Source of the DNA: Mycolicibacterium smegmatis
Lineage (GTDB): Bacteria; Actinomycetota; Actinomycetes; Mycobacteriales; Mycobacteriaceae
DNA length: 32,000 nt
Direction of reading: 5' to 3'
Assembly: GCF_001457595.1 (NCBI RefSeq)
Contig: NZ_LN831039.1
Location: forward strand, 5,100,001-5,132,000
The notes beneath the pieces are model-generated. The model was not told the origin of the DNA and did no database searches. It worked only from the letters and a program-made list of their open reading frames with translations. Shown here one piece after another: positions 783 through 15,467 of the stretch. How positions within the stretch are numbered: the first letter of the stretch is position 1; every line of letters starts with the position of its first letter. The translations under genes and the position numbers were made by a program.

Positions 783-2687
783 TCAACGGGATTGCAAGTC
801 GTACACCGTGACCCCGCCGACCTCGGTCTTGGGGAAGTTCTCCTTGACCCAGTTGGTGATGTCTCCGGCGCTGCCGTGGCGGAAGCCACCGGGGCCGCGC
901 CTGCCCTCGGCGGGTGCGAGGAAGTACCGGACGTCTCCGCGTTCGACGTACTGCTGGAACTGTTCGAGGGTCGGTGAATCGTCTGCGCCCATGAACCCAC
1001 CGATCGCCATGAGCGACTCACCGGTCTTGAGTTCCAGGTCACTGACCATCCACGAGCCCACACTCGCTGCCGCCCACCGGTTGTCGGTGTCGGAGATCAG
1101 CTCGCGAAGCGCCGTGTCGTCGTCTCGTTCGCCGCGGTGCGGCCCTCCGAACCCGAAACCGCCTCCGCGCTGCGGGCCCGCCATGGGGAGCGGCCCGCCG
1201 CTCTGCCCGTTGGCCACGGTCTCCACCGAGTACGCCAGCGTCGAACCCAGGCCCAGCACCACCGCCGCCAACGCCAGCGCCGCGGTGACCTGACCCGGCC
1301 GGTGTGCGCGCAGCGCGAGCAGCACCGCGACGACGACCGATCCGATCAGCACGACCCACCGCAGGGCGGGCCACCAGTCGGGCGTGCGGTTCAGCAGCAC
1401 GAACGCCCACACCCCGGTCAGGCCCATCATGGCGGCCAGCAGCAGCCGGATGCCGACGTGAGAACGCCTGCGCCACAACTCGACCACCGAGATGCCCGCG
1501 AGCGCCGCGACGGCCGGGGCCAGCGCCACGGTGTAGTACGGGTGGATCGTGCCGTCCATGAAACTGAACACCACACCGGTCACCGCCAGCCAACCGCCCC
1601 ACACCAGCAGACCGGCCCGCGTGGCCGAAGTGCGGACAGTGTGCCGGGTCAGCCACAGCAACACGACCAGACCGATCAGTGCCACCGGCAGCAGCCACGC
1701 GACCTCGGTGCCCAAGGCGTCGTTGAACAACCGGCCGATACCGGGGTCGCCGCTGTGGAAGATGCCTCGCGAGCCGCCCCCACCCGGGCCGGGGCCACCT
1801 CCACCAGGGCCGGGGCCACCGCCGAAGCCGGGACCGCCACCGCGGCCGACAATGCGCTCGATGCCGTTGTAGCCGAACGCCAACTGCAGCAGGCTGTTGT
1901 CGGTCGAACCGGCGATGTACGGCCGCGATCCGGCGGGCCACAGCGCCACCAGGGCCAGATACCACCCGGCCGAAACCGCCATGGCGACACCGCCGGCCAG
2001 CAGTATGCCCACGCGCTTGGCCACCGACGCCACGGGCGCGGCGACCAGGAACGCCAGCGCCAGGCCCGGCACGATCAGAAAAGCCTGCAACATCTTGGTG
2101 AGAAACGCGAAACCCAGTGCGCACCCGCACAGCACGACCCATCCCGTCGCGGCGCGGGCCCCGGACGCACCGATGGCGCGCACCATGAAGTAGGCCGCCA
2201 CCACGAGCAGCAGCACCAGCAACGCATCGGGGTTGTTGTAGCGGAACATCACGGTCGCGACGGGCGTGAGCGCGAGCGCGGTGCCCGCCACCAGACCGGC
2301 CACCGGCCCGCTGGTGCGCCGCACCGTCGCGTACAGCACGGCCACGGCCGCGACGCCCATGAGCGCCTCGGGCAGCAGCGTGGTGAACTCGTTGAACCCG
2401 AACAACCTGCCGGACAGGCCCATCGCCCACATCGCGGCGGGCGGCTTGTCGACGGTGATGGCATTGCCCGCGTCAAGGGAACCGAACAGCCAGGCCTTCC
2501 ACGACTGTGTCGCGGCCTGCGCCGCGGCGGCGTAGTAGCTGTTGGCCCAGCCCTTGGACCCCAGGCCCCACAGGTAGAGCACCGCGGTGCCCACCAGCAT
2601 CGCCCAGTAGGCCGGCCGGATCCAGCGCGCCTGGGGCGCCGGGGTTTCGAGGGCCGCCGACGGGCGGGCCTGTTCGACGGTGGTCAT
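783..2687 (-). CDS. Polytopic GT-C glycosyltransferase, PMT_2/ArnT-like (GT39/GT83-like), paralogue A, 634 aa
   Basis: The N-terminal periplasmic-loop motif is ...GWANSYYAAAAQAATQSW...DAGNAITVDKPPAAMW..., followed by about 10 or more hydrophobic helices and a soluble C-terminal domain ending ...GGVTVYDLQSR. It shows strong similarity to the ORF at 4045-5907. The ATG at 2687 lies 3 nt after the upstream gene's stop. Confidence 0.8.
   Translation of the reverse strand: MTTVEQARPSAALETPAPQARWIRPAYWAMLVGTAVLYLWGLGSKGWANSYYAAAAQAATQSWKAWLFGSLDAGNAITVDKPPAAMWAMGLSGRLFGFNEFTTLLPEALMGVAAVAVLYATVRRTSGPVAGLVAGTALALTPVATVMFRYNNPDALLVLLLVVAAYFMVRAIGASGARAATGWVVLCGCALGFAFLTKMLQAFLIVPGLALAFLVAAPVASVAKRVGILLAGGVAMAVSAGWYLALVALWPAGSRPYIAGSTDNSLLQLAFGYNGIERIVGRGGGPGFGGGPGPGGGGPGPGGGGSRGIFHSGDPGIGRLFNDALGTEVAWLLPVALIGLVVLLWLTRHTVRTSATRAGLLVWGGWLAVTGVVFSFMDGTIHPYYTVALAPAVAALAGISVVELWRRRSHVGIRLLLAAMMGLTGVWAFVLLNRTPDWWPALRWVVLIGSVVVAVLLALRAHRPGQVTAALALAAVVLGLGSTLAYSVETVANGQSGGPLPMAGPQRGGGFGFGGPHRGERDDDTALRELISDTDNRWAAASVGSWMVSDLELKTGESLMAIGGFMGADDSPTLEQFQQYVERGDVRYFLAPAEGRRGPGGFRHGSAGDITNWVKENFPKTEVGGVTVYDLQSR
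1764..1847 (-). repeat. Gly/Pro low-complexity tract inside GT-C paralogue A, with two copies of a 21-bp unit
   Basis: Encodes GRGGGPGFGGGPGPGGGGPGPGGGGSRG. The 14-mer gggccggggccacc occurs at 1786-1799 and 1807-1820, a period of 21 nt or 7 codons (unit PGPGGGG). Paralogue B has a shorter, non-repetitive loop at the same position. Confidence 0.85.
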
Positions 2688-2690
2688 GTT

Positions 2691-3989
2691 TCAGTCCTCG
2701 ATCTGTGACGGGGCTTGTGACGGGCGCCGCGTCCGGGCCGGGTGGAACACCCAGCCGCGCAACAGGACGAAGCGGACGACGGTCGCGATCAGGTTGGCCA
2801 CCACCAGGACACCCAGTTCGACCGCGCGGTGCGGCTGCGGCGTCATGATGTGCAGCAGGTAGAGCGACCCGCTCGTGATGGTGAGCGCGATCCCGAAGAC
2901 CGTCAGGCCCTCGAGGTGGTGACGCGCCACGTTGCCGGTTCCCGCGATGCCGAACGTGAAGCGGCGGTTGGCCGCGGTGTTGCCGATCGCGGTGAGCAGC
3001 AGCGCGATCAGGTTGGCGGCCTGTGCGCCGAGCCCGGCGCGCATGAGCGAGAACAGCAACAGGTAGGCCAGCGTGGACACCACACCGATGGCGCCGAACC
3101 GCACGACCTGACGCAGCAGCGATCCCGGTGGCGCGGTGTGGCGCGTGGAACCGAGTTGCGCGGCGATGGTGTTGACGGGGATGGATCCGTTGGCGAAACC
3201 ACGCAGCAGCCGGCCGATGCCCTTGAGGTCGGCGGCCGCGGTGGCGACGATGTCCACCCGGCTGTCCGGATCGTCGACCCAGTCGACGGGCACCTCGTGG
3301 ATGCGCAGACCGCTGCGCTCGGCGAGCACCAGCAGTTCGGTGTCGAAGAACCACCCGGTGTCGACGACATGCGGCAGCAGGCTCTTGGCCACGTCGGCCC
3401 GGATCGCCTTGAACCCGCACTGCGCATCCGAGAATTTCGCGGCCAGAGTGGATTTCAGGATCAGGTTGTAGCAGCGCGAGATGAACTCGCGCTTGGCGCC
3501 GCGGATCACGCGCGAACCGCGGCCCAGCCGCGTGCCGATCGCGAGATCGGAGTGACCCGAGATCAACGGCGCCACAAGCGGTGCGAGCGCCGCGAGATCG
3601 GTGGACAGGTCGACGTCCATGTACGCCAGCACCGGGGCGTCCGACGTCGACCACACGGCGTGCAGCGCACGGCCGCGGCCCTTCTCCTCCAGTCGCACGA
3701 CCCGCACGCCGGGCAGTTCCTCGGCCAGGCGCGCCGCGATCTGCGGCGTGGCGTCGGTGCTCGCGTTGTCGGCGATCGTGATGCGCGTCGGCAGCGCGAA
3801 GTTCTCCTGCAGGTAGCCGTGCAACCGCCGTACCGAATGCGCCAGTGCGGCCTGCTCGTTGAACACCGGCACCACCACGTCGAGCACCGGAACCCCGGCG
3901 GCGCGGGCGACCTGTGCGGCATTGGGGCGCGAGGCGAACCGGAACCGCTGCTCCACCGGTGTCTCGGGATCTACGGCCAACTCTGTCAT
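2691..3989 (-). CDS. Bifunctional GT2 polyprenyl-phosphate glycosyltransferase fused to a C-terminal GtrA-like membrane domain (432 aa)
   Basis: GT2 motifs are present: VVVPVFNEQ, ADNASTD, YMDVDLSTD, QCGFK. The C-terminal roughly 130 aa have four hydrophobic helices and GtrA-type ends (LRQVVRFGAIGVVSTLAYLLLF ... VVRFVLLRGWVF). I chose the ATG at 3989 (MTELAVD) because GGAG lies 5 nt upstream. The track start at 4061 would overlap the upstream gene. Confidence 0.85.
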   Translation of the reverse strand: MTELAVDPETPVEQRFRFASRPNAAQVARAAGVPVLDVVVPVFNEQAALAHSVRRLHGYLQENFALPTRITIADNASTDATPQIAARLAEELPGVRVVRLEEKGRGRALHAVWSTSDAPVLAYMDVDLSTDLAALAPLVAPLISGHSDLAIGTRLGRGSRVIRGAKREFISRCYNLILKSTLAAKFSDAQCGFKAIRADVAKSLLPHVVDTGWFFDTELLVLAERSGLRIHEVPVDWVDDPDSRVDIVATAAADLKGIGRLLRGFANGSIPVNTIAAQLGSTRHTAPPGSLLRQVVRFGAIGVVSTLAYLLLFSLMRAGLGAQAANLIALLLTAIGNTAANRRFTFGIAGTGNVARHHLEGLTVFGIALTITSGSLYLLHIMTPQPHRAVELGVLVVANLIATVVRFVLLRGWVFHPARTRRPSQAPSQIED

Positions 3990-4044
3990 GTCTCCAGATT
4001 TCTGCCGCGGGTTGTGCGGCGCGTGGGGCGAAGCTATGTGCCGG

Positions 4045-5907
4045 CTATGAGTTCGGCGCACGCTGCGTCAGGTCGTAGATGGTGACGTTGTCGATCGTGA
4101 TGGGCGTGAAGTGGGCCTGCACCCACCGCGCGATCTCGGCTGCCTCCTGGCTGCCGGTGGGCGTGTGCCCGGGCCGGGCCCCCATGATGCGGCTGCGGAT
4201 GAAGTAGTGGATCTGCCGTCCGGCCACCAGCTCCTCGAACTCGGCGAGGGTGGGCGCCGGATCGGTGCCGTTGAAGCCGCCGACGGCCATGACCGGTGCA
4301 CCGGTGGCCAACTGGTAACCCGCGGCGTTGCTCGATCCCACGACCGCGGCGGCCCATGTGTAGTTGTCGGCGTCGGCGGCCAGCGTCGCGGTCAGTGCCT
4401 CCCCCGGCGTCGGCGCCGAGAACGGGCCACCGCCGAATCCGCGGGACGGGCCGACCGACGGTATGGCCCCGGTGTGCGGCGCGGCAGCGGTGGCCACGGC
4501 GTACGCGCCCGGTCCGGCGAGGCAGATCAGTACGGTCAGCGCCGCGAGCGGTCGCACCAGACGCGTGTGGACGAGATCGACCACGAGCAGCAGTACCGCG
4601 ACGGCCACGCCCACCACCGCGACCGTGGCACGCAGCCACGGCATCGGGTCGTTGTGGCGCGCCAGCAGCACCGCGGCCAGGATCACGGTCACAGCCACCG
4701 CGGCCGCCATCGCGGTCGCGACACGAATGTCGTTGCGGTGGCGCCACATCGACGTCGCACCGATGCCGATCACGGCGCCGATCGCCGGCGCGAGCGCGAC
4801 CGTGTAGTACGGATGCACGATGCCGTTCATGTAGCTGAACACCACCGCGGTCACCACAAGCCAACCGCCCCAGATGATCAACGCCGCGCGTATGCGGTCG
4901 GTGCGTGGCGCGCGGCGCGTGACGATCAGGCCGGCCACCAGGCACACCAGCGCCGCGGGCAGCAGCCATGCGATGTCGGCGCCCATCTGCCAGCCGAACA
5001 ACCGGCCCGCACCGACGTCGAAGTTGGAGTTGCCCAGCCCGCCGACCTCGGCACCGGTGAGCCGGCCGAAACCGTTGTAGCCCAGCGCCAGTTCGACGAT
5101 GCTGTTGTTCTGAGATCCGCCGATGTAGGGCCGAGAGGCGGCCGGCCACAGTTCGACGAGCACCAGATACCAGCCGCCGCTGACCACCATGGCCGTCCCG
5201 GCCGCGGCGAGGTCGGCGATGCGCGCGCGCAGCGGGCGGTCACCCGCGAGAAGCGCCGCGGCGCAGAACGCCGGCAGGACCAGGAACGCCTGCAACATCT
5301 TGGCGAGGAACCCGAACCCCACCGCGGCGCCCGCGGCGACGAACCACCAACGGGAGGCGTCTTTCTCGATGCCGCGCTGTACGCAGTACGCGGCCACCAC
5401 GAGCAACAGGACCAGCAGGGCATCGGGGTTGTTGAACCGGAAGATCAGCGCGGCCACGGGTGTGAGCGCCAGCACGGCACCAGCCAGCACGGCCGCGTGC
5501 CAACCCGCGGCGCGGCGCACCGCGGCGTAGAGCACCGCGACGGCGGCGATGCCTTCGAGCGCCTGCGGTAGCAGCACGCTCCACGAACTCAGGCCGAACA
5601 ACCGCACCGACAGGTCGATCACCCACAGCGCGGCGGGGGTCTTGTCGACCGTGATCGCGTTGGCCGGGTCGCTCGACCCGAACAGCATCGCGATCCAGTC
5701 ACTGGCGCCGGCCTGGGCCGCGGCGGAGTAGAACGGGTTGGCCCATCCGCTGATCGACAGGTTCCACAGGTACAGCAGTGCCGTCCCGGCCAGCAGCAGG
5801 GGCAGCGCGACGCGTTCGGCCCGGGACCGTGGCCGCACGGATTCAGACGTGCGGGAATCAGGTGCCTCGACCTCGGCGCGTGCGGGATCGCGGGCAACCA
5901 GTGTCAC
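4045..5907 (-). CDS. Polytopic GT-C glycosyltransferase, PMT_2/ArnT-like, paralogue B (about 620 aa)
   Basis: ...GWANPFYSAAAQAGASDW...DPANAITVDKTPAALW...FRFNNPDALLVLLLVVAAY... is colinear with paralogue A, including the C-terminal domain (...IDNVTIYDLTQR). GTG at 5907 follows GAGGA at 6-nt spacing; TTG at 5910 is an alternative start. Confidence 0.8.
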   Translation of the reverse strand: MTLVARDPARAEVEAPDSRTSESVRPRSRAERVALPLLLAGTALLYLWNLSISGWANPFYSAAAQAGASDWIAMLFGSSDPANAITVDKTPAALWVIDLSVRLFGLSSWSVLLPQALEGIAAVAVLYAAVRRAAGWHAAVLAGAVLALTPVAALIFRFNNPDALLVLLLVVAAYCVQRGIEKDASRWWFVAAGAAVGFGFLAKMLQAFLVLPAFCAAALLAGDRPLRARIADLAAAGTAMVVSGGWYLVLVELWPAASRPYIGGSQNNSIVELALGYNGFGRLTGAEVGGLGNSNFDVGAGRLFGWQMGADIAWLLPAALVCLVAGLIVTRRAPRTDRIRAALIIWGGWLVVTAVVFSYMNGIVHPYYTVALAPAIGAVIGIGATSMWRHRNDIRVATAMAAAVAVTVILAAVLLARHNDPMPWLRATVAVVGVAVAVLLLVVDLVHTRLVRPLAALTVLICLAGPGAYAVATAAAPHTGAIPSVGPSRGFGGGPFSAPTPGEALTATLAADADNYTWAAAVVGSSNAAGYQLATGAPVMAVGGFNGTDPAPTLAEFEELVAGRQIHYFIRSRIMGARPGHTPTGSQEAAEIARWVQAHFTPITIDNVTIYDLTQRAPNS

Positions 5908-5958
5908 CAAGTCATCCTCGCGGCGGCAGCTAGGTGTCTCATTGGCCCGCCCTGTGGG

Positions 5959-7542
5959 TCAGCTGTGAGCTGCGCCGGGAAGCCGTACGACGAACCGCGT
6001 CTCACCGGGCCGACTGGTGACGTCGATGACGCCGCCGTGGGCCTTGACCACGGCCGCGACGATCGCGAGACCCAGGCCCGTGCTGCCCTCGCGGCGTGAG
6101 CGCGACGAGTCGCCGCGCGCGAACCGTTCGAACACGTCAGGCAGCAGTTCCGGCGCGATACCGGGTCCGTCGTCGGTGACCGCGACGGTGACCCAGCCCT
6201 CGGCGTCGGCGCTGAGCGCCACGGTGACCGACGTGCCGGGCGGGGTGTGGGTGCGCGCGTTGGCCAGCAGGTTCGCCATGACCTGGTGCAGACGCGCCTC
6301 GTCACCGTCGATCACCACGGCATCCTCGGGCAGGTCGAGCGACCACTTGTGCTGCGGACCGGCGACATGTGCGTCGCTGACGGTGTCGACGACCAACCGG
6401 GACAGCTCGACCCGGTCGCGCTCCAGCGGACGGCCCGCGTCCAGGCGCGCGAGCAGCAGCATGTCCTCGACGAGTTGTGTCATGCGGGACGTCTCGGATT
6501 CGACTCGGCTCATCGCATGCGCGACGTCGTCGGGCAGTTCGCCGCGTTTGCGTTGTGCGAGTTCGGTGTAGCCGCGGATCGCGGCGAGCGGGGTGCGCAG
6601 TTCGTGGCTCGCGTCGGCGACGAACTGGCGCACGCGCGTCTCGCTGGCGTGGCGGGCCGACAGCGCGCTGGCGATGCGGTCGAGCATGCGGTTGAGCGAC
6701 GTGCCGAGCTGGCCGACCTCGGTGTGGGCGACCGCGGGGTCCACCGGCACGATCGGCGTCGGCAACCGCACCTCGCCGCGTTCGAGCTCGAGATCGGCGA
6801 CCTCCCGCGCGGTCGCGGAAACCCTTGCCAGCGGCGCGAACTGACGTCTGATGAGCAGCGTGCCCGCGGTGATCGCGGCGATCAGCGCGACCGCGGCGAT
6901 CACGCAGAACATGCCGAGCACCCACAGCAGCGTGTCGTCGACCACCGAGTTGGGCAGTCCGGTGACGATGGTCTGCGGACCGCCGTGGCGCGGATGCAGG
7001 CCGATGAGGCGGTAGCGTCCGAGGCCGTCGAGGTCGATGGTCTGCGGTTCACGCGTCGCGGGGATCGCGGCCAACTGCCGGGCCGCCGCGGCGCTGACCT
7101 CCTGCCGGTCGCCGTCGGAGGTGATCACGCCTGCGTCGACCGAGCCGTCCGGTGAGACCACGGCACCCACGGTGCGGGCCGCCTGCCCGGGGGCGTTGAG
7201 AAAGCCCGGACCAGGGCCCTGCTCAGGGTCGAACACGCGCAGGTGCCGACCGGGCGGGCCCATCCCCGGCGGGAATAACGGCAGGAAACCTCTTGGTGGT
7301 GGCGGCAATTCGTAGATGGCCGCCGAGCGTCTGCCCGCCTCGAGCAGCTGTTCGTCGAGCTGGTGCATCAGGAAGCGTTGCAACGCGAACTCGGTCGCCA
7401 GGCCGATGCTCAAGCACACCACGGCGAGCAGCGCGACCTGGGTGCCGACGAGCCTGGCACGCAACGGCCAGGTGCGCGGCGACCACCACCGGGTTCCGCC
7501 GACGGCCGCTCGCGGTGCGTCAGCGCGGGGGACGAAGAACAT
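5959..7542 (-). CDS. Sensor histidine kinase (two TM segments flanking a roughly 170-aa extracytoplasmic domain, then HAMP, HisKA, HATPase_c)
   Basis: H-box FVADASHELRTPLAAIRGY. N, G1 and G2 boxes are present (MANLLANARTHT, DDGPGI, GSTGLGLAIV). The hydrophobic segments are LLAVVCLSIGLATEFAL and LLWVLGMFCVIAAVALIAAITAG. The ATG at 7542 overlaps the 3' end of the regulator gene by 23 nt; GTG at 7551 is an alternative. Confidence 0.9.
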   Translation of the reverse strand: MFFVPRADAPRAAVGGTRWWSPRTWPLRARLVGTQVALLAVVCLSIGLATEFALQRFLMHQLDEQLLEAGRRSAAIYELPPPPRGFLPLFPPGMGPPGRHLRVFDPEQGPGPGFLNAPGQAARTVGAVVSPDGSVDAGVITSDGDRQEVSAAAARQLAAIPATREPQTIDLDGLGRYRLIGLHPRHGGPQTIVTGLPNSVVDDTLLWVLGMFCVIAAVALIAAITAGTLLIRRQFAPLARVSATAREVADLELERGEVRLPTPIVPVDPAVAHTEVGQLGTSLNRMLDRIASALSARHASETRVRQFVADASHELRTPLAAIRGYTELAQRKRGELPDDVAHAMSRVESETSRMTQLVEDMLLLARLDAGRPLERDRVELSRLVVDTVSDAHVAGPQHKWSLDLPEDAVVIDGDEARLHQVMANLLANARTHTPPGTSVTVALSADAEGWVTVAVTDDGPGIAPELLPDVFERFARGDSSRSRREGSTGLGLAIVAAVVKAHGGVIDVTSRPGETRFVVRLPGAAHS

Positions 7543-8269
7543 ATCCCGCACCGCGCAGCGTGTGGATCATGGGTTCGCGCCCGCTGTCGATCTTCTTACG
7601 CAGATACGAGACGTACAGTTCGACGATGTTGGAGCGGCCACCGAAGTCATAGCTCCACACCCGGTCGAGGATCTGGGCCTTGCTCAGCACGCGCTTGGCG
7701 TTGCGCATCATGAAGCGCAGCAGTTCGAACTCGGTGGCGGTCAACGCGATCGGATCGCCTCCGCGCGTCACCTCGTGGCTGTCCTCGTCGAGCACCAGAT
7801 CTCCGACGACAATCTTGGCGCCGCCGTCCTCACTGGTCACGCCGGTGCGGCGCAGCAGCGCCCGCAGCCGCAGCACGACCTCTTCGAGGCTGAACGGCTT
7901 GGTGACGTAGTCGTCGCCGCCCGCGGTCAGACCCGCGATGCGGTCCTCCACGGAATCCTTGGCGGTGAGCAGCAGAAGCGGCAGCCCCGGGATCTGCTCG
8001 CGCAGCTTGCGCAACACGTCCAGGCCGCTCATGTCGGGCAGCATGACGTCGAGCACCACGACGTCCGGCGGCGTCTCCCGCGCCGCCGCGATCGCACTCG
8101 CACCGTCGCCCGCGGTGGTGATGTCCCAGCCCTCGTACCGCAGCGCCATGGACACCAGTTCGGCGAGCACGGGTTCGTCGTCGACGACCAGCACCCGGAT
8201 CGGGTTGCCGTCGGCCCGACGCATCACTGCCCGCCCGGTCTCGATCTCGGTGCCGTTCGCCGTTCCCAT
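7520..8269 (-). CDS. OmpR/PhoB-family response regulator
   Basis: The receiver domain has VLVVDDEP, DVVVLDVMLPDMSG and LLLTAKD. The winged-helix output domain has LTATEFELLRFMM...IHTLRGAGYVL. The start is either the ATG at 8269 (MGTANG...) or the ATG at 8224 (MRRADG...). Confidence 0.92.
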   Translation of the reverse strand: MGTANGTEIETGRAVMRRADGNPIRVLVVDDEPVLAELVSMALRYEGWDITTAGDGASAIAAARETPPDVVVLDVMLPDMSGLDVLRKLREQIPGLPLLLLTAKDSVEDRIAGLTAGGDDYVTKPFSLEEVVLRLRALLRRTGVTSEDGGAKIVVGDLVLDEDSHEVTRGGDPIALTATEFELLRFMMRNAKRVLSKAQILDRVWSYDFGGRSNIVELYVSYLRKKIDSGREPMIHTLRGAGYVLRPPR

Positions 8270-8327
8270 TGCACCTATTATTCGCGCGCCCTATGGGGCA
8301 AAACTGTGCGCTTTCTATGTCCCGGCT

Positions 8328-8346
8328 GTGAAACTGCAGGTGCGGT
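8328..8346. promoter_or_regulatory. Direct-repeat element GTGAAAC-TGCAG-GTGCGGT in the regulator / secreted-protein divergent region
   Basis: Read from the sequence. In the first 15 nt it differs at only two positions from the element at 9803-9821 (GTGAAGC-TCCAG-GTGAAAC). A protein-binding function is inferred only. Confidence 0.35.
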
Positions 8347-8386
8347 ACACAGGTCGCTCATAGTCCGCGGTTGCATCCTTGTGGAC

Positions 8387-8845
8387 ATGAGCATGCGACG
8401 TACCGCCGCCGCGGTGGGTATCGCGGTGGCCATCGGCGGCCTGGGCGGCGCGGCGATCTACGCCGCGACCGACGCGGGCAGCTCGGGACCTTTTCGTGGC
8501 GGGCCGGGCGGGCCACCCCGCGCCGCGGGCGTGTGGGGGCCACAACACCGCGAGCATGCCGATCCCGCGACCGTGCGCAGCGAGACCGTCCTCGTCGACA
8601 GCAAAGGCGGCTTCACCACAACGGTCACGCAGACCGGCACCATCACGGCGCTGTCACCGACCACGGTGACCGTCCGCAGCAGCGACGGTTTCACGCAGTC
8701 CTACACGCTGCCGGACCCAGCGCGACCTGGCGCCGCGCCGCCGTTCGGGATCGACGACACCGTGGAGGTGCGCGCGACCCGCGACGGCGAAACGCTCACG
8801 GTCACCAGTATCGGCGAACCGCCTGCTCAGCCGGCAGCGCCGTAA
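8387..8845 (+). CDS. Secreted or membrane-anchored protein of unknown function with a Gly/Pro linker and two beta-strand repeats (152 aa)
   Basis: MSMRRTAAAVGIAVAIGGLGGAAIYAA is a signal or anchor segment. It is followed by GPFRGGPGGPPRAAG and then GTITALSPTTVTVRSSDG and TVEVRATRDGETLTVTSIG. The gene is divergent from the response regulator. The 509-aa track ORF is an upstream GC artefact. Confidence 0.65.
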   Translation: MSMRRTAAAVGIAVAIGGLGGAAIYAATDAGSSGPFRGGPGGPPRAAGVWGPQHREHADPATVRSETVLVDSKGGFTTTVTQTGTITALSPTTVTVRSSDGFTQSYTLPDPARPGAAPPFGIDDTVEVRATRDGETLTVTSIGEPPAQPAAP

Positions 8846-9060
8846 CCGTCGGGCAACTCAACCTCGATGGGCGGCGTCGCAATCGAGGTCTCCAACTCGG
8901 TGGGAGCCCCGGTCTGCGTTGAAGTTTCACCCATTGTCGGCCCAAGGGCCTCATCGAACTGAGCCGAACCGGACAGGCCAGAGCCCCCGAGTACGCCGAA
9001 CGCACCCATGCTCACCGCAGCCGCGGCACCGAGCCCTGCCAATGTGTATTTGATCTTCAT
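8827..9060 (-). CDS. Small secreted Thr/Pro/Glu-rich peptide, paralogue 1 (77 aa)
   Basis: MKIKYTLAGLGAAAAVSMGAFGVLGG is a signal-peptide-like N-terminus. The mature part contains GETSTQTGAPTELETSIATP...PDGY. AGGTGG lies upstream of the ATG. This part is homologous to paralogue 2. Confidence 0.55.
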   Translation of the reverse strand: MKIKYTLAGLGAAAAVSMGAFGVLGGSGLSGSAQFDEALGPTMGETSTQTGAPTELETSIATPPIEVELPDGYGAAG

Positions 9061-9088
9061 CCTGACCACCTGTAGCGATTTTTGGTCA

Positions 9089-9111
9089 GGCCTCCCGTTC
9101 AGCGGGAGGCC
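9089..9111 (-). terminator. GC-rich stem-loop (9-bp stem, 5-nt loop) between small-peptide genes 2 and 1
   Basis: ggcctcccg (9089-9097) pairs perfectly with cgggaggcc (9103-9111). There is no U-tract on the minus-strand RNA, so it would be an I-shaped terminator or attenuator at best. A second copy of cctcccg at 9162-9168 offers an alternative pairing. Confidence 0.35.
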
Positions 9112-9187
9112 CGTCGAACGATCGGCGGCCACCATAAGCAGGGCTCAGCGGGGCTGTCCACCCTCCCGGTCGGCGCGCACGTCTGGA

Positions 9188-9451
9188 TCAGTGCGGTTCA
9201 GCAAACCCTGAAGGCGTGGTCGCGCTCACCGACGGCGTGGCAACGGACGTCTCGGGCGATGTCGGCGCCGTGGTCTCGGTGATGGTCTCACCGGTGGTGA
9301 TGGCGGGTTCGGGCGGCAGCGTTCCGGTGTGGTCAGGTTCGGCGAGCCCCTGGGCAGCGCCGAGACCGACGACCGCCATGGCAAGCGCGCCTGCTGCACC
9401 GAAACTCGCTGCGGCGATCTTGAAACCTCGGCGGTTCTTGGCTGAACTCAC
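9188..9451 (-). CDS. Small secreted Thr/Pro/Glu-rich peptide, paralogue 2 (87 aa)
   Basis: A GTG start at 9451 is preceded by GGAGG with an 8-nt spacer. The protein begins VSSAKNRRGFKIAAASFGAAGALAMAVVGLGAAQG (signal-like) and continues GETITETTAPTSPETSVATP...PSGF. Confidence 0.6.
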   Translation of the reverse strand: MSSAKNRRGFKIAAASFGAAGALAMAVVGLGAAQGLAEPDHTGTLPPEPAITTGETITETTAPTSPETSVATPSVSATTPSGFAEPH

Positions 9452-9502
9452 GTGGTTCACCTCCGATATCTCGGCTTTGACTCCTCGTGCAGGAGTAGCC
9501 GG

Positions 9503-9530
9503 ATGAACCGGAGGCGAAACCGTCGTGAGC
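9503..9530. promoter_or_regulatory. Triple direct repeat ATGAACC-N4-GCGAAAC-N4-GTGAGC upstream of small-peptide gene 2
   Basis: The period is 11 + 11 nt, and it lies 52-79 nt upstream of the GTG at 9451. It is a degenerate version of the element at 9803-9830. Confidence 0.3.
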
Positions 9531-9541
9531 ACAGCGGCGGG

Positions 9542-9775
9542 CTACTTGGCGGCCTCTTCTTCCGAAGGCAACGGAGCCGGGCCCTTGATCGCCGGCACCG
9601 CCATCGGCACTCCGGGCGCCGTGGGCGGCGTCGTCTCGGTGCTCGTCGAACCCATGTTCATCTTCGCTCCGTGTGCCGACGCGGTGCCCTCGGCCAGCAC
9701 GCCTGCGACCCCGAAAACCAACAATGCGGCGCCGCCGGCGCTTGCCGCGAGCAACTTCAGCCTGTTTGTCCCCAT
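9542..9775 (-). CDS. Small secreted Thr/Pro-rich peptide, paralogue 3 (77 aa)
   Basis: The ATG at 9775 is preceded by GGAGGAACTGTC. The protein begins MGTNRLKLLAASAGGAALLVFGVAGVLAEGTASA (signal-like) and continues GSTSTETTPPTAPGVPMAVP. Confidence 0.6.
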   Translation of the reverse strand: MGTNRLKLLAASAGGAALLVFGVAGVLAEGTASAHGAKMNMGSTSTETTPPTAPGVPMAVPAIKGPAPLPSEEEAAK

Positions 9776-9802
9776 GACAGTTCCTCCACTGATCGAGCCT
9801 CG

Positions 9803-9830
9803 GTGAAGCTCCAGGTGAAACCAGTGAATC
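9803..9830. promoter_or_regulatory. Triple direct repeat GTGAAGC-TCCAG-GTGAAAC-CA-GTGAATC upstream of small-peptide gene 3 (shared intergenic region with oppB)
   Basis: Three GTGAA units start at 9803, 9815 and 9824. The element lies 28-55 nt upstream of the ATG at 9775. This architecture is typical of OmpR-family binding sites, but the assignment is inference. Confidence 0.4.
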
Positions 9831-9973
9831 CGGCATTTCTATGACCAGGCTGTACACCCGCTGGCAATTGCCCACACGGCACGGGGAACGCCACACACGG
9901 TGCGTCGTGGCCCGCATCACGGCCTCATGGCGCCACCTCTTCTACCCTTGGCACCCATGGCAGGACGGACGAC

Positions 9974-10951
9974 ATGACGCGGTTTCTCGCGCGCCGGCTG
10001 CTCAATTACGTGATCCTGCTGGCACTGGCCTCGGTCCTGACGTTCACGCTCACGTCGTTGTCGTTCGATCCGCTCGACAGCCTGCTGCAGCGCAACCCGC
10101 GTCCACCGCAGTCCACGATCGACGCGAAGGCCGCCGAACTGGGCCTCGACAAGCCCATCCCGCTGCGTTATCTGCACTGGGCCTCAGGAGCGGTGCGCGG
10201 CGACTTCGGCACGACGGTGACGGGCCAGCCGGTCTCCGAGGAGTTGTGGCGCCGGATCGGGGTGAGCCTGCGCCTGCTGCTGCTCGGCTCGATCCTTGGC
10301 ACCGTGATCGGTGTGGTGGTGGGCGCGTGGGGAGCCATCCGCCAGTACCGGCTGTCGGACCGTGTGGTGACCGTGGTGTCGCTGCTGATCCTGAGCACGC
10401 CGACGTTCGTGGTCGCCAACCTGCTGATCCTGGGCGCGCTCGACGTGAACTCGGTGCTGGGGTTCCGGCTGTTCGAGTACACCGGCGAGACCTCACCGGA
10501 CGCGGTGGGCGGTTCCTGGGCGCAGTTCGTCGACCGGCTACAGCATCTGGTGTTGCCGACGCTGACGCTGGCGCTCGGCGGGATCGCGGGTTTCAGCCGC
10601 TACCAGCGCAACGCGATGCTCGACGTGCTGAGCCAGGACTACATCCGCACCGCTCGGGCCAAGGGGCTGACCCGCAGGCGCGCGCTGTTCAAACACGGCC
10701 TGCGCACCGCACTGATCCCCATGGCGACGCTGTTCGCCTACACCGTCGCGGGACTGGTCACGGGCGCGGTGTTCGTGGAGAAGATCTTCGGCTGGCACGG
10801 CATGGGTGAATGGGTGGTGCAGGGCATCGCCACGCAGGACACCAACATCATCGCGGCGATCACGGTGTTCACCGGCACCGTGGTGCTGCTGGCGGGTCTG
10901 CTGAGCGACGTCATCTACGCGATGCTCGATCCGAGGGTGCGGGTGACATGA
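9974..10951 (+). CDS. oppB: Oligopeptide ABC transporter permease
   Basis: MTRFLARRLLNYVILL... is a characteristic OppB/DppB N-terminus. The protein has six hydrophobic segments and an EAA-type loop (YIRTARAKGL). It overlaps the next gene by ATGA. Synteny matches Rv1283c. Confidence 0.9.
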   Translation: MTRFLARRLLNYVILLALASVLTFTLTSLSFDPLDSLLQRNPRPPQSTIDAKAAELGLDKPIPLRYLHWASGAVRGDFGTTVTGQPVSEELWRRIGVSLRLLLLGSILGTVIGVVVGAWGAIRQYRLSDRVVTVVSLLILSTPTFVVANLLILGALDVNSVLGFRLFEYTGETSPDAVGGSWAQFVDRLQHLVLPTLTLALGGIAGFSRYQRNAMLDVLSQDYIRTARAKGLTRRRALFKHGLRTALIPMATLFAYTVAGLVTGAVFVEKIFGWHGMGEWVVQGIATQDTNIIAAITVFTGTVVLLAGLLSDVIYAMLDPRVRVT

Positions 10952-11880
10952 CCGACACCTCAGCCGAATCGGCGCGCTCGGGCCTGCACACCGAGGAGTT
11001 CGCGACGCGGCGCACGCTGGTGTTCCGCCGCTTCGTGCGCAACAAGCCCGCGGTGGTGTCGCTCGCGGTGCTCGTGCTGATGTTCGTGGGCTGCTACGCG
11101 CTGCCACCGCTGCTGCCCTACAGCTACACCGACCTCGACTACTACGCGCTGCAGCAACCGCCCTCACCTGAACACTGGTTCGGCACCACGGCTCTGGGGC
11201 AGGACATCCTGGCGCAGGTGTTGCGCGGCATGCAGAAATCCATGCTGATCGGCGTGTGCGTGGCGTTCATCTCGACGATCATCGCGGCCACGGTCGGATC
11301 GATCGCCGGGTACTTCGGCGGATGGCGCGACCGCACGCTCATGTGGATCGTCGACGTGCTGCTGGTGGTCCCGAGCTTCATCCTGATCGCGATCGTGACA
11401 CCGCGTCTCAACGATGCCGACCGGGTGTTCTGGTTGATAGTCCTGCTGTCTCTGTTCAGCTGGATGATCAGCTCACGCATCGTGCGCGGTATGACGATGA
11501 GCCTGCGCTCGCGCGAATTCGTCGTCGCCGCACGGTACATGGGCGTGCGCAGCGGACGGATCATCGTGCGCCACATCCTGCCCAACGTGGCGTCACTGCT
11601 GATCATCGACACCGCGCTCAACGTCGGCACCGCGATCCTGGCCGAAACCGGTTTGAGCTTCCTCGGTTTCGGTATCCAGCCACCCGACGTGTCGCTGGGC
11701 ACGCTGATCGCCGACGGCACGGGTTCGGCGACCACGTTCCCGTGGGTGTTCCTGTTCCCGGCCGGGGTGCTGGTGCTGATCATCCTGTGCTCCAACCTGG
11801 TCGGTGACGGACTGCGTGACGCGCTCGACCCCGGCAGCGGGGGCCTGCGCCGCAAGTCCCGCAGGAAGGGCCGCCGATGA
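10948..11880 (+). CDS. oppC: Oligopeptide ABC transporter permease
   Basis: The ATG at 10948 overlaps the oppB stop. The protein has OppC/DppC-type features ([23 protein letters not shown]). It overlaps oppD by ATGA. Confidence 0.9.
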
Positions 11881-13721
11881 GCCGCCTGCTGGAAGTGCGC
11901 GATCTGACCGTGGCCTTCCCCACCGACACCGACGCGGTGCACGCCGTGCGCGGCGTGAGTTTCGACATCGACGCCCGCGAGGTCGTCGCGCTGGTCGGAG
12001 AATCGGGCGCAGGCAAATCGGCCACCGCCATGGCCGTGGCGGGCCTGCTGCCCGAGTTCGCCGAGGTGTCCGGATCGGTGCTGCTGCGCGGCGACGAACT
12101 GCTCGGGCGATCAGATCAGGACATGTCGCGGATCCGGGGCAACGTCATCGGCACGGTGTTCCAGGACCCCATGTCGGCGCTGACGCCGGTCTACACCGTC
12201 GGCGACCAGATCGCCGAGGCGCTGCAGGTGCACAACCGCGACATGGGCCGCCGCGCCGCGCGTGCCCGCGCCGTGGAACTGCTCGACCTCGTCGGCATCG
12301 CGCAGCCCGAGCGGCGCGCCAGGTCGTTCCCGCACGAACTGTCCGGCGGCGAACGGCAACGCGTCGTGATCGCGATCGCCATCGCCAACGACCCCGACCT
12401 GTTGATCTGTGACGAGCCGACCACCGCGCTCGACGTCACGGTGCAGGCCCAGATCCTCGACGTGCTCAAGACCGCGCGTGACGTGACCGGCGCGGCCGTG
12501 CTGATCATCACGCACGATCTCGGCGTGGTCGCCGAGTTCGCCGACCGCGCCCTGGTGATGTACGCGGGCCGCACGGTCGAGCAGGCGGCCGTGGGTGAGC
12601 TGTACCGCAACGCCCGAATGCCCTACACCGTGGGACTTCTCGGCTCGGTGCCGCGTCTGGGCGCACCGCAGGGCACCCGCCTGATCCCGATCCCCGGCGC
12701 TCCCCCGGCGCTGACCGCGATACCGCACGGGTGCCCGTTCGCCCCGCGCTGCCCGCTCGCGATCGACGAGTGCACGGCCGCCGAGCCGGAACTGGTCGCG
12801 GTGTCGACGAATTCGCGCGACCACCGTGCGGCCTGCATCCGCACCGACGAGGTCGCCGAACGCTCGGCGTCCGAGATCTACCACGTCGAGGCGCGACCGC
12901 AGGCTCCCGAACCCACCGGCGACGCACCCGTGGTGCTGCGCGTGCAGGGCCTGGCCAAGACCTACAAGCTGACCAAGGGTGCGGTGTTCCGCCGCCAGGT
13001 CGGCGAGGTCAAGGCCGTCGACGACATCAGTTTCGAACTGCGCCAGGGCCGCACGCTCGGCATCGTCGGCGAATCCGGCTCGGGCAAGTCCACCACCTTG
13101 CACCAGATCCTGGATCTCGCGGCGCCGCAGTCCGGTTCGATCGAGGTGCTCGGCACCGACGTCGCGACACTCGACCGCGCCGCACGACGCACGCTGCGCA
13201 CCGATCTGCAGGTGGTGTTCCAAGACCCCGTGGCCAGCCTGGACCCGCGCCTGCCGGTGTTCGACGTGTTGGCAGAACCGTTGATCGCCAACGGTTTCGA
13301 CAAGTCCGCGCGCTCTGAGCGGGTGGCCGAACTGCTCGAGGTCGTGGGCCTGCGCCGCACCGACGCCGCGCGGTACCCCACCGAGTTCTCGGGCGGGCAG
13401 AAACAGCGCATCGGCATCGCCCGCGCGCTGGCGCTGCGCCCCAAGATCATCGCGCTCGACGAACCGGTGTCCGCACTCGACGTGTCGATCCAGGCCGGCA
13501 TCATCAACCTGCTGCTCGACCTGCAGGACAGATTCGGGTTGTCCTATCTGTTCGTCTCCCACGACCTGTCCGTGGTCAAACACCTGGCCCACGACGTCGC
13601 GGTCATGTACAAGGGTTCGATCGTCGAGCAGGGACCCAGCGATGACGTCTTCGCCCATCCCCGGCACGAGTACACCCGGCGCTTGCTGGCCGCCGTACCG
13701 CAACCCGACCCCGGCGGGTAA
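11877..13721 (+). CDS. oppD: Fused double-ATPase subunit of the oligopeptide ABC transporter (OppD/OppF fusion, 614 aa)
   Basis: Two complete NBDs are present: GESGAGKSA / LSGGERQRV / [12 protein letters not shown] and GESGSGKST / [14 protein letters not shown] / [13 protein letters not shown] Cys-rich linker ([14 protein letters not shown]...C) sits after NBD1. The size and fusion match Rv1281c. Confidence 0.92.
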
Positions 13722-13760
13722 TGCCGTCACCTAAGCGCAGTTACCTCTAGCATCGGCGGG

Positions 13761-15467
13761 GTGAAGCCGATCAGCGGGAAGACCACCTCGATTCTGCGAC
13801 GCCTCGCCGCCGCCGCATGCGTCGGCGCCGTCACGATGGCCATGACCTCGTGCACGAGCGACGAGCGCGACATACCGTCGGCCGGCGGAACCGCCGAGGT
13901 CGGCGCCACCAACGACATCAACCCGCAGGACGTGGCCAACCTGCGCCAGGGCGGCAACCTGCGACTGGCGCTCCCCGGCTTCCCGTCGAACTTCAACACG
14001 CTGCACATCGACGGCAACGAGGCGAGCCTGGGCGGCCTGATGCGCGCGACGCTGCCGCGCGCCTACCGCGTGGGTCCCGACGGTTCGACCACGGTCAACA
14101 CCGACTACTTCACCAGCGTCGAACTCACCAGCACCGATCCGCAGGTGGTGACCTACACCATCAACCCCGAGGCCGTGTGGACCGACGGCACACCCATCAC
14201 GTGGGAGGACATCGCGGCGCAGATCCACGCCACGAGCGGCAAGGACAAGGCGTTCCAGATCGCGTCGCTCAACGGCTCCGACCGGGTCGCCTCGGTCACC
14301 CGCGGCGTCGACGACCGGCAGGCCGTCGTGACGTTCGCCGAGCCGTTCTCGGAGTGGCAGGGCATGTTCGCGGGCAACACCATGCTGCTGCCCAAGAGCA
14401 GCACGTCCGATCCCGAGGTGTTCAACAAGGGCCAGCTGAACGGTCCCGGACCGTCGGCCGGTCCGTTCATGGTCTCCAACGTCGACCGCGGCGCGCAGCG
14501 GATCACGTTGACCCGCAACCCGAAATGGTGGGGCGAACCGCCCGTGCTCGACAGCATCACCTACACCGTGCTCGACGACGCGGCCCGGATCCCCGCACTG
14601 CAGAACAACGCACTCGACGCCACGGGCGTCGCATCGCTCGACGAGCTGGAAATCGCGCGCAGAACCCCCGGCATCTCGATCCGCCGGGCGCCATCGCCCA
14701 GCTGGTACCACTTCACGTTCAACGGCGCGCCCGGTTCGATCCTGGCCGACAAGGCGCTACGGCAGGCGGTCGCCAAGGGCATCGACCGCAACATCATCAC
14801 GACCGTGGCGCAGCGCGGGCTCGCCGACGATCCCAAGCCGCTGAACAACCACATCTTCGTGGCCGGTCAGGAGGGCTACCAGGACAACAGCGAGGTGGTG
14901 GCGTTCGACCCGGAGAAGGCCAAGGCCGAACTGGACGCACTGGGCTGGACGCTCAAGCCCGGTGCGCAGTTCCGCGAGAAGGACGGCAAGCGCCTGACCA
15001 TCCGCGACGTGCTCTACGACTCGCAGAGCACCAGGCAGATCGCCACGATCGCGCAGAACTCCCTGGCGCAGATCGGCGTCGAGCTGCGTATCGAGGCCAA
15101 GCCCGGCAGCGGGTTCTTCACCGACTGGATCATCCCGGGCAACTTCGACATCGCGCAGTTCTCGTGGGTGGGCGACGCGTTCTCGCTGTGCTGCCTCAAC
15201 CAGATCTACACGACCGACGCCGACAGCAACTTCGGCAGGATCAGCAGCCCGGAGGTCGACACCAAGGCGATCGCCACCATGGGCGAGCTGGATCCGGAGA
15301 AGGCCAGGACGATGGCCAACGAACTCGACAAGCTGATCTGGGAAGAGGTGTTCAGCCTGCCGTTGTTCCAGAGCCCGGGCAACGTCGCGGTGCGCAGCAA
15401 CCTGGCCAACTACGGGCCCGCGGGCATCGGTGACATCGACATCACCAAGGTCGGTTTCATGAAGTAG
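13761..15467 (+). CDS. oppA: Family-5 solute-binding lipoprotein of the oligopeptide transporter
   Basis: GTG start. The signal peptide carries a lipobox-like ...AVTMAMTSC. The 568-aa body has SBP_bac_5 character (NPKWWGEPP, GYQDNS). Confidence 0.88.
   Translation: MKPISGKTTSILRRLAAAACVGAVTMAMTSCTSDERDIPSAGGTAEVGATNDINPQDVANLRQGGNLRLALPGFPSNFNTLHIDGNEASLGGLMRATLPRAYRVGPDGSTTVNTDYFTSVELTSTDPQVVTYTINPEAVWTDGTPITWEDIAAQIHATSGKDKAFQIASLNGSDRVASVTRGVDDRQAVVTFAEPFSEWQGMFAGNTMLLPKSSTSDPEVFNKGQLNGPGPSAGPFMVSNVDRGAQRITLTRNPKWWGEPPVLDSITYTVLDDAARIPALQNNALDATGVASLDELEIARRTPGISIRRAPSPSWYHFTFNGAPGSILADKALRQAVAKGIDRNIITTVAQRGLADDPKPLNNHIFVAGQEGYQDNSEVVAFDPEKAKAELDALGWTLKPGAQFREKDGKRLTIRDVLYDSQSTRQIATIAQNSLAQIGVELRIEAKPGSGFFTDWIIPGNFDIAQFSWVGDAFSLCCLNQIYTTDADSNFGRISSPEVDTKAIATMGELDPEKARTMANELDKLIWEEVFSLPLFQSPGNVAVRSNLANYGPAGIGDIDITKVGFMK

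Follow-up and report, generated by a model that had tools for sequence, protein, structure and literature searches.

Three small paralogous genes and a SigF-type promoter

In a 32-kb window of the Mycolicibacterium smegmatis chromosome (the whole stretch of DNA analyzed, 32,000 nucleotides, contig NZ_LN831039.1, positions 5,100,001 to 5,132,000), three short open reading frames (ORFs) are located in tandem on the minus strand between oppB and MSMEG_4992. The window has the orientation of the mc2155 genome CP000480.1, and a window coordinate equals the genome coordinate minus 5,079,869. The initial annotation of this DNA, made from the letters alone, had listed ORFs of 77, 87 and 77 aa, which correspond to orf1 at 8827-9060 (MSMEG_4991/MSMEI_4865, the latter annotated as 102 aa; tail ...MGETSTQTGAPTELETSIATPPIEVELPDGYGAAG), orf2 at 9188-9451 (MSMEG_4993/MSMEI_4866, 87 aa from a GTG; tail ...ITTGETITETTAPTSPETSVATPSVSATTPSGFAEPH), and orf3 at 9542-9775 (tail ...IKGPAPLPSEEEAAK). 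Two of them were said to carry a correctly spaced GGAGG, and this Shine-Dalgarno sequence is present 7 nt before the ATG of orf3 (9783-9787, minus) and 8 nt before the GTG of orf2 at 9451 (9460-9464, minus). Since the latter overlaps the alternative GTG at 9460, from which a 90-aa GenBank model starts, the 87-aa model is favored. For orf1, an AGGTGG ribosome-binding site (9066-9071, minus) lies 5 nt upstream of the start, and is part of a conserved GG(A/G)GTGGTCAG(A/G)-start element that precedes the start codon of many related genes. The common motif G-[ES]-T-x-T-[EQ]-T-x-[AP]-P-T and the C-terminal P-x-G-[YF] of orf1 and orf2, both pointed out in the same annotation, are present in the ORFs, and the third codon positions are, as it had stated, richer in A/T than the flanks (GC content 0.70, 0.72, and 0.83 vs 0.87-0.91).

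Orthologues in conserved order were identified in M. wolinskyi, M. houstonense, Mycobacterium sp. 21AC1, sp. 141, sp. MMS18-G62, M. moriokaense, and several metagenome-assembled genomes (MAGs); those of orf3 are found in seven other loci. Synonymous sites are near saturation in these comparisons (proportion of synonymous differences, pS, 0.4-0.7), and the proportion of nonsynonymous differences (pN) is 0.05-0.28 in the core and C-terminal part and 0.36-0.56 in the N-terminal part. In the core of orf2, pN is 0.05-0.2 vs a pS of 0.5-0.66. The differences at codon positions 1/2/3 are 0.21/0.13/0.54 for the orf2 type, 0.21/0.13/0.55 for the orf1 type, and 0.26/0.20/0.39 for the orf3 type. Codon-position statistics were used because open alternative frames are common in high-GC DNA and thus uninformative. 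The three ORFs, orf3 included, are real protein-coding genes under purifying selection, which is strongest on the Thr/Pro-rich core of the tail. A non-coding or antisense artefact was rejected on the codon periodicity and on the ratio of nonsynonymous to synonymous change.

The ORFs had also been called tandem paralogues. In direct BLASTP comparisons only orf1 and orf2 matched each other (E = 2e-5), and orf3 was without a significant match. Profiles were therefore built from the orthologues of other species only, making the test of paralogy non-circular. The orf2-type profile scored 62.8 bits with orf1 and 33.7 bits with orf3 of the window, and the orf3-type profile 31.9 bits with orf1 and 29.5 bits with orf2; orf3 is matched by the profiles of both other paralogue types. 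The best of 900 region-preserving shuffles, in which N- and C-terminal composition was kept, reached 17-18 bits, and the remaining ORFs of the window scored 10 bits or less. Because the cross-profile scores exceed those of the shuffles and of the other ORFs, the three genes are paralogues beyond their common composition, as had been proposed.

Expression and promoters

Published transcriptome data place the transcription start of MSMEG_4993 (orf2) at mc2155 position 5,089,355, that is, at 9486 in the window, and assign the gene to an operon MSMEG_4993-MSMEG_4991 (PMC5741613). In the same study MSMEG_4993 was among the genes picked for high promoter activity, with 78/44 reads per kilobase per million mapped reads (RPKM) at 16 h, 862/3290 at 26 h, and 11544/11524 at 39 h. 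The mRNA of orf2 is thus among the most abundant in stationary-phase M. smegmatis. In a sigF mutant, the log2 ratios to wild type in exponential/stationary phase were -1.52/-4.00 for MSMEG_4993 and -1.66/-6.01 for MSMEG_4991 (PMC4694148), a 16- to 64-fold drop in stationary phase which shows that both orf2 and orf1 are SigF-dependent. Mild induction of the two genes has also been reported under pre-drying stress. The published sigF-mutant and RPKM data cover MSMEG_4991 and MSMEG_4993, and not orf3. In the literature, the locus tags turned up in main text only twice, each time within an expression table.

A SigF-type promoter, GGTTTC-N15-GGCTAC, lies at 9495-9521 (minus), 9 nt before the mapped start at 9486. 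Compared with the published SigF consensus (GTTT-N14-19-GGGTA) it has one mismatch, in the -10 element, and the pattern GGTTTC...GG(C/T)TAC is kept upstream of the orf2 orthologues in eight species or MAGs. orf2 is transcribed from this promoter of its own. A sigma-70-like candidate promoter for orf1, TGGACA-N18-TATGGT, was found at 9131-9160 (minus; one site vs 0.1 expected), and conservation of its -10 element extends to M. wolinskyi and Mycobacterium sp. 21AC1. Between orf2 and orf1 there is also a GC-rich hairpin, GGGCCTCCCG-CTGAA-CGGGAGGCC (9087-9114, minus; region z = -2.8), which lacks a U-tract and recurs, slightly altered, in M. wolinskyi and sp. 21AC1. Judged from this predicted structure, it may act as a partial terminator or as an element of the 5' untranslated region (UTR) of orf1. 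In other species, a different hairpin is seen in the long 5' UTR of the orf2-type gene.

At their 3' ends, orf1 and MSMEG_4992, which converge, share 19 bp (8827-8845); no intrinsic terminator-like site was found in 8700-10000, and the operon of the response regulator follows on the same strand as orf1. Transcripts driven by SigF could extend across MSMEG_4992 as antisense RNA and from there reach the regulator operon. Together with the extreme stationary-phase mRNA level, this arrangement would suit a role of the locus at the level of RNA, in which strong orf2-orf1 transcription acts antisense on MSMEG_4992 and by read-through on the regulator, kinase and glycosyltransferase genes, the ORFs being secondary. 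We consider this very improbable, as the purifying selection at the protein level and the codon periodicity demonstrate selection on the peptides themselves, and as members of the same family exist as single genes without a convergent partner. A role of the RNA would be an added effect at most.

Architecture of the proteins

All three proteins begin with an apolar, Ala/Gly/Val/Leu-rich run of 21-29 residues (family median 22; mean of the best 19-residue Kyte-Doolittle window about 2.0), preceded by an n-region with a charge of +2 and followed by an extended, acidic, Cys-free and Thr/Pro-rich tail of about 45-55 residues with a charge of -2 to -8. Thr, Ser, and Pro make up 32-50% of the tail residues, and family-wide Thr accounts for 17.6% and Pro for 14.9%, which agrees with the Thr clusters in a Pro/Ala-rich context described in the initial annotation. 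The AlphaFold model of orf2 has a helix spanning residues 5-33 and coil beyond it, with a mean predicted local distance difference test score of 59. The N-termini had been read as Sec signal peptides of secreted proteins. An export-type N-terminus agrees with the present data, but secretion is not borne out, since a run of 21-29 residues equally fits an uncleaved signal-anchor. The family alignment shows no conserved AxA site after the apolar run, and a cleaved signal peptide is no more likely than an N-in/C-out signal-anchor.

Three other classes of exported or processed protein were considered and rejected. With no Cys in any of the three proteins they are not lipoproteins. They are not substrates of twin-arginine translocation, as R-R-x-F-K is confined to orf2-type sequences, with K, Q, or N as substitutes elsewhere in the family, so that the RR motif is not conserved. 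The lack of Cys, together with the lack of maturation genes nearby, also argues against precursors of ribosomally synthesized and post-translationally modified peptides.

A family of about 200 clusters in Mycolicibacterium and soil metagenomes

A word-indexed search retrieved close relatives only, and an exhaustive profile search was used to define the family. It returned 200 clusters (50% identity) at E<1e-3, of which 41 at E<1e-10, nearly all of 70-90 aa and matched end to end. Those members that carry an organism name are all from Mycolicibacterium or Mycobacterium sp., and the rest are from soil and rhizosphere metagenomes. Conservation of the motif in related genomes, named in the initial annotation as a check, is seen both in the orthologues and throughout the family. 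Taken together, the sequences point to a bona fide, previously undescribed family of what are probably small envelope proteins of fast-growing mycobacteria, restricted to Mycolicibacterium.

Three regions can be distinguished in the family alignment: a conserved apolar segment, K-x-L-x-A-x-x-G-x-x-A-x-V-A-M-G-A-L; a variable linker; and a core, M-T-x-G-x-T-x-T-x-T-T-P-P-x-x-P-x-T-S-x-A-x-P-x-x-K, in which one Thr, one Ala, and one Pro never vary and the Gly and a further Thr hardly do. Different tails come after the core (PSGFATPH, ELPDGYGNG, KGPAPLPSEE..., APPYGGG, RPNGF, and also EEQGLPG). From one to four copies are present per locus. In M. houstonense (L014 9493-9936) and sp. 141 (L022 6843-7085) we observed hybrid genes, in which an orf3-type N-terminus and core are joined to an orf2-type C-terminus (PSGFATTH / PEGFATTH). 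Such hybrids suggest recombination or gene conversion between paralogues and, with the varying copy number, indicate that the array evolves by duplication and recombination.

Scans against Pfam and NCBIfam with the three ORFs and 40 family members gave no family at E<=0.01 for the ORFs and none that recurred at E<=1 among the members, and a PDB profile search returned chance matches to the hydrophobic helix only. The scans gave no match that would back the names used in databases, which are 'Fibronectin attachment protein', 'Apa', and 'DUF2613 family protein', and the first two, as given to MSMEG_4993 and its relatives, reflect composition only.

The neighboring module and its distribution

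Downstream of the small genes, and considered here as context only, lie MSMEG_4992, which encodes a 152-aa secreted protein from a leaderless start (8387-8845, plus, convergent with orf1), the response regulator gene MSMEG_4990 (7520-8269, minus), a histidine kinase gene (5959-7551, minus), and three minus-strand glycosyltransferase (GT) genes: a GT-C with PMT_2 and YkcB_C domains (4045-5910), a GT2::GtrA fusion (2691-4061), and the other GT-C of the same domain composition (783-2687). The carbonic anhydrase gene canA (247-786, minus) follows, and on the other side of the small genes is oppBCDA (9974-15467, plus). The order in Mycolicibacterium-type loci is oppB, one to four family members, an MSMEG_4992-like gene in some of them, regulator, kinase, GT-C, GT2::GtrA, GT-C, and canA.

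The GT-C enzymes had been called protein mannosyltransferase (PMT)-like. Their match to PMT_2 is strong (E=2e-30) and that to PMT weak (E=7.6e-7); among solved structures, ArnT alone is related in sequence (5ezm, E=4e-8), and none of a PMT was matched at E<=0.01, so that they are better described as ArnT-like. Such an enzyme would still be compatible with a protein acceptor. A review of multi-component glycosylation systems lists PMT_2 enzymes with glycopolymer acceptors only, and gives the acceptor of YkcBC as unknown. The two GT-C paralogues of Mycolicibacterium are 46% identical, and Arthrobacter, Nocardia, and Tsukamurella have one GT-C each vs the two in Mycolicibacterium.

The module also occurs in other Actinobacteria. 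In Arthrobacter sp. ERGS1:01 an MSMEG_4992-like gene is divergent from regulator-kinase-GT2::GtrA-GT-C, and because of this homologue MSMEG_4992 is regarded as a member of the ancestral two-component/GT module. GT2::GtrA and GT-C are found together in Nocardia farcinica and Tsukamurella tyrosinosolvens, and GT-C in Nonomuraea. No family member was detected within 9-10 kb of the module homologues in these four genera (family hidden Markov model E>0.5).

Conversely, many family members are not linked to such a module. Metagenomic relatives were collected with an orf3-type sub-alignment, the 40-sequence alignment being too diverse, and 44 of the 80 were singletons without an opp, kinase or GT neighbor, all with the EEQGLPG type of tail; at least 1 kb of upstream sequence is present for 22 of these 44. 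Unlinked copies are also seen in sp. 141, where an extra copy, about 13.6 kb past the module, is flanked by PadR and argS, and in M. flavescens, where a copy lies beside an esterase and a MOSC gene. No common neighbor of the EEQGLPG-type singletons was found, and only two contigs, of one organism, share a context. In a soil contig (L093 1940-5544 = L088), one EEQGLPG-type singleton is near genes for an MscS-type channel, a DUF6328 protein, a STAS anti-sigma-antagonist-like protein, and a GNAT acetyltransferase with a cyclic nucleotide-binding domain, a stress-signaling neighborhood that fits a general-stress role of the family.

Co-occurrence with the GT-C and GT2::GtrA genes, which the initial annotation had suggested looking for, is thus seen in all Mycolicibacterium loci examined and breaks down elsewhere, the module standing alone in other genera and 44 of 80 metagenomic relatives, as well as copies in several genomes, having none of it nearby. 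A test of co-regulation with the module enzymes was likewise negative: a separate SigF promoter drives the small genes, whose published operon is MSMEG_4993-MSMEG_4991, the regulator gene has a separate leaderless start, and the GT and kinase genes are absent from published SigF tables.

Function of the small proteins

From these data we infer that the three proteins are exported or anchored with the tail outside, that they may be O-glycosylated, and that they have a role in the envelope under stress. The reading we favor, with moderate confidence, is that they are small envelope proteins, induced by stress and either exported or anchored in the membrane, to which the general pathway may add O-linked mannose. 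The apolar helix would drive Sec-dependent insertion with the N-terminus inside, and the tail would be exposed on the outside of the plasma membrane, or set free by cleavage of the helix. The tail would then form a stress-induced component of the envelope, a hydrated, acidic and probably O-glycosylated peptide, and its conserved motif could serve as the recognition site for a partner. The source of any O-glycosylation would more likely be the general Sec-coupled Pmt than the adjacent ArnT-like GT-C, and the neighborhood with the two-component/GT module would be a lineage-specific arrangement rather than a cassette of substrate and enzyme.

Several observations weigh against this reading. All 45 Mycolicibacterium-type loci, namely nine genomes or assemblies and 36 metagenome contigs (M. 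smegmatis, four loci reached from the peptide side, five of five from the GT-C side, and 36 of the 80 metagenome contigs), have the small genes linked to the module, and this linkage is accounted for here only as inherited synteny. The small genes share their strand with the regulator operon, and in M. houstonense and sp. 21AC1, which do not have MSMEG_4992, they immediately precede the regulator gene. G-x-T-x-T and A-x-P, which hardly vary, resemble a specific recognition site, for which a loosely specific Pmt would have no need. In an uncultured Actinomycetota MAG (L018 9713-11668) a frameshifted-looking family member lies directly upstream of a GT-C of the GT87 family. The three genes and their peptides are absent from two proteogenomic data sets and one Ribo-seq supplement (PMC4633059, PMC4821088, PMC9597629). 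The predicted extracytoplasmic tails of orf1 and orf2 (8827-8960 and 9188-9350) contain no Lys or Arg and are for that reason invisible to tryptic proteomics, which may explain why the two are missing from the M. smegmatis proteogenomic tables. Lastly, a role as an envelope 'brush' or as a ligand is something we only infer.

The same linkage could be read as that of an enzyme and its dedicated acceptors, in line with the self-contained locus of enzyme, donor, substrate, and sensor envisaged in the initial annotation. GT2::GtrA would make and flip a polyprenyl-phosphate-hexose, one or both of the ArnT-like GT-C enzymes would transfer the sugar, outside the membrane, to the Thr cluster of G-x-T-x-T, and the two-component system would tune the process. 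Besides the adjacency in every Mycolicibacterium locus examined, the common strand, and the position directly upstream of the regulator in two species, the nearly invariant, sequon-like Thr of the motif agrees with this, and the second GT-C paralogue of Mycolicibacterium could have gained a new acceptor. A precedent is known from Pseudomonas aeruginosa, where the GT-C TfpW arabinosylates Thr/Ser of the group IV pilin PilA encoded next to it. As in that system, a GT-C dependent on a polyprenyl-phosphate-sugar would modify several Thr/Ser of a small exported neighbor; unlike it, the present case concerns a putative modification, shows no homology to PilA/TfpW, and has a linkage of the small genes that is not universal. 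Since module and family each occur without the other, and since their promoters and regulons are separate, the self-contained locus is unsupported and the cassette is a minority reading that we consider unlikely. It is weakened further by the closest solved relative of the GT-C being the lipid A transferase ArnT, with no PMT structure matched, and by the characterized PMT_2 enzymes of three-component systems, which act on lipoteichoic acid (LTA), wall teichoic acid (WTA) or polysaccharides. It is kept under consideration because the linkage persists throughout Mycolicibacterium and because the invariant residues resemble a sequon. Equally doubtful, in its specific form, is the proposal that the duplicated ArnT-like GT-C of Mycolicibacterium was recruited to O-glycosylate G-x-T-x-T with a polyprenyl-phosphate-hexose made by GT2::GtrA. 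If it were true, mycobacteria would have a second pathway of protein O-glycosylation, independent of Pmt, with its substrates under SigF and its enzymes under a two-component system. If the cassette does not exist, the search for the acceptor of the actinobacterial two-component/GT2::GtrA/GT-C module could turn to cell-wall glycans.

Another possibility is that the products are regulatory peptides, either bitopic proteins that contact the histidine kinase, within the membrane or in the periplasm, in the manner of MgrB or SafA and couple it to SigF, or, like Phr peptides, carriers of C-terminal tags that are exported and re-imported by the divergent Opp system. They resemble MgrB/SafA and Phr/Opp peptides in being small, with a single N-terminal hydrophobic segment and a short extracytoplasmic tail, beside a two-component system and an opp operon, and in syntenic loci the genes are always located between the two. 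Their transmembrane segment (K-x-L-x-A-x-x-G-x-S-A-x-V-A-M-G-A-L) varies unusually little for a signal peptide and contains many small residues, as expected in helix-helix packing, and the conserved tags PSGFATPH, ELPDGYGNG, and EEQGLPG look like the ends of mature peptides. We nevertheless regard such a role as quite improbable. The Arthrobacter module works without the family, singletons lie far from kinase or opp genes, no gene for an RRNPP/TPR-type cytoplasmic receptor is present among the neighbors, and an expression of about 11,500 RPKM far exceeds the needs of a stoichiometric kinase modulator; the present genes are moreover not known to be under control of the adjacent two-component system. 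The proximity to opp is most simply a by-product of the insertion site. In M. tuberculosis oppB (Rv1283c) adjoins canA (Rv1284), and the block 783-9900 therefore looks inserted relative to M. tuberculosis.

Comparison with known systems

The interpretation as stress-induced envelope proteins can be set beside several characterized systems. Like the Pmt/GT39 substrates Apa (fibronectin attachment protein), PstS-1, and LpqH in its N-terminus, the small proteins combine a probable export-type N-terminus with Thr clusters in a Pro/Ala-rich, extended, Cys-free segment, and UniProt automatically names some family members 'Fibronectin attachment protein' or 'Apa'. They differ from the Apa/LpqH type in having no sequence homology to it, in being only 70-90 aa long without a folded domain, and in a motif that is position-specific rather than a mere bias in composition. 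The neighboring genes have a make-up identical to that of multi-component transmembrane glycosylation systems, in which a GT2 of the CsbB/GtrB type acts with a GtrA/GtcA flippase and a PMT_2 or YfhO GT-C (Bacillus subtilis YkcC/YkcB; ArnC/ArnT). This likeness concerns the neighbors and not the small proteins, and the known acceptors of these systems are LTA, WTA, cell-wall polysaccharides, and lipid A. The SigF regulon of M. smegmatis includes other small membrane or hydrophilic proteins (MSMEG_3022, MSMEG_3255, and MSMEG_5543), with which the present genes share a SigF-type promoter, a strong dependence on SigF, and a 100- to 400-fold rise from 16 h to 39 h. The present family is a different one, unannotated, tandemly amplified, and restricted to one lineage.

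A family of about 200 clusters that has no name, no domain model, and no study is hereby defined, and offers a handle on what non-growing mycobacteria expose at the outside of their membrane. With its conserved sequence, the SigF promoter of orf2 is a compact stationary-phase promoter. As a technical warning, two of the three tails have no Lys or Arg and go unseen in tryptic proteomics.

Further observations on the locus

Stop and start codons overlap or abut between regulator and kinase (7520-7551), GT-C and GT2::GtrA (4045-4061), and GT-C and carbonic anhydrase (783-786). This spacing of the predicted genes suggests a single long minus-strand operon, beside which should be set the leaderless starts published for the regulator gene, MSMEG_4992, and the carbonic anhydrase gene. 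The unit of a small secreted beta-rich protein divergent from regulator-kinase-GT2::GtrA-GT-C (783-8845 in the window; L110 5205-11791) is conserved from Mycolicibacterium to Arthrobacter (Micrococcales), and appears to be a widespread, uncharacterized actinobacterial envelope glycosylation module under two-component control. A search of plasmid DNA with the region gave no match. In the Actinomycetota MAG mentioned above, a polysaccharide deacetylase gene is found near the GT87-family GT-C, and two further family copies lie within 20 kb. On the plus strand, a gene call on CP000480 predicts a 93-aa ORF at 9525-9806, antisense to orf3 and with third codon positions in common with it, which is probably a spurious annotation artefact.

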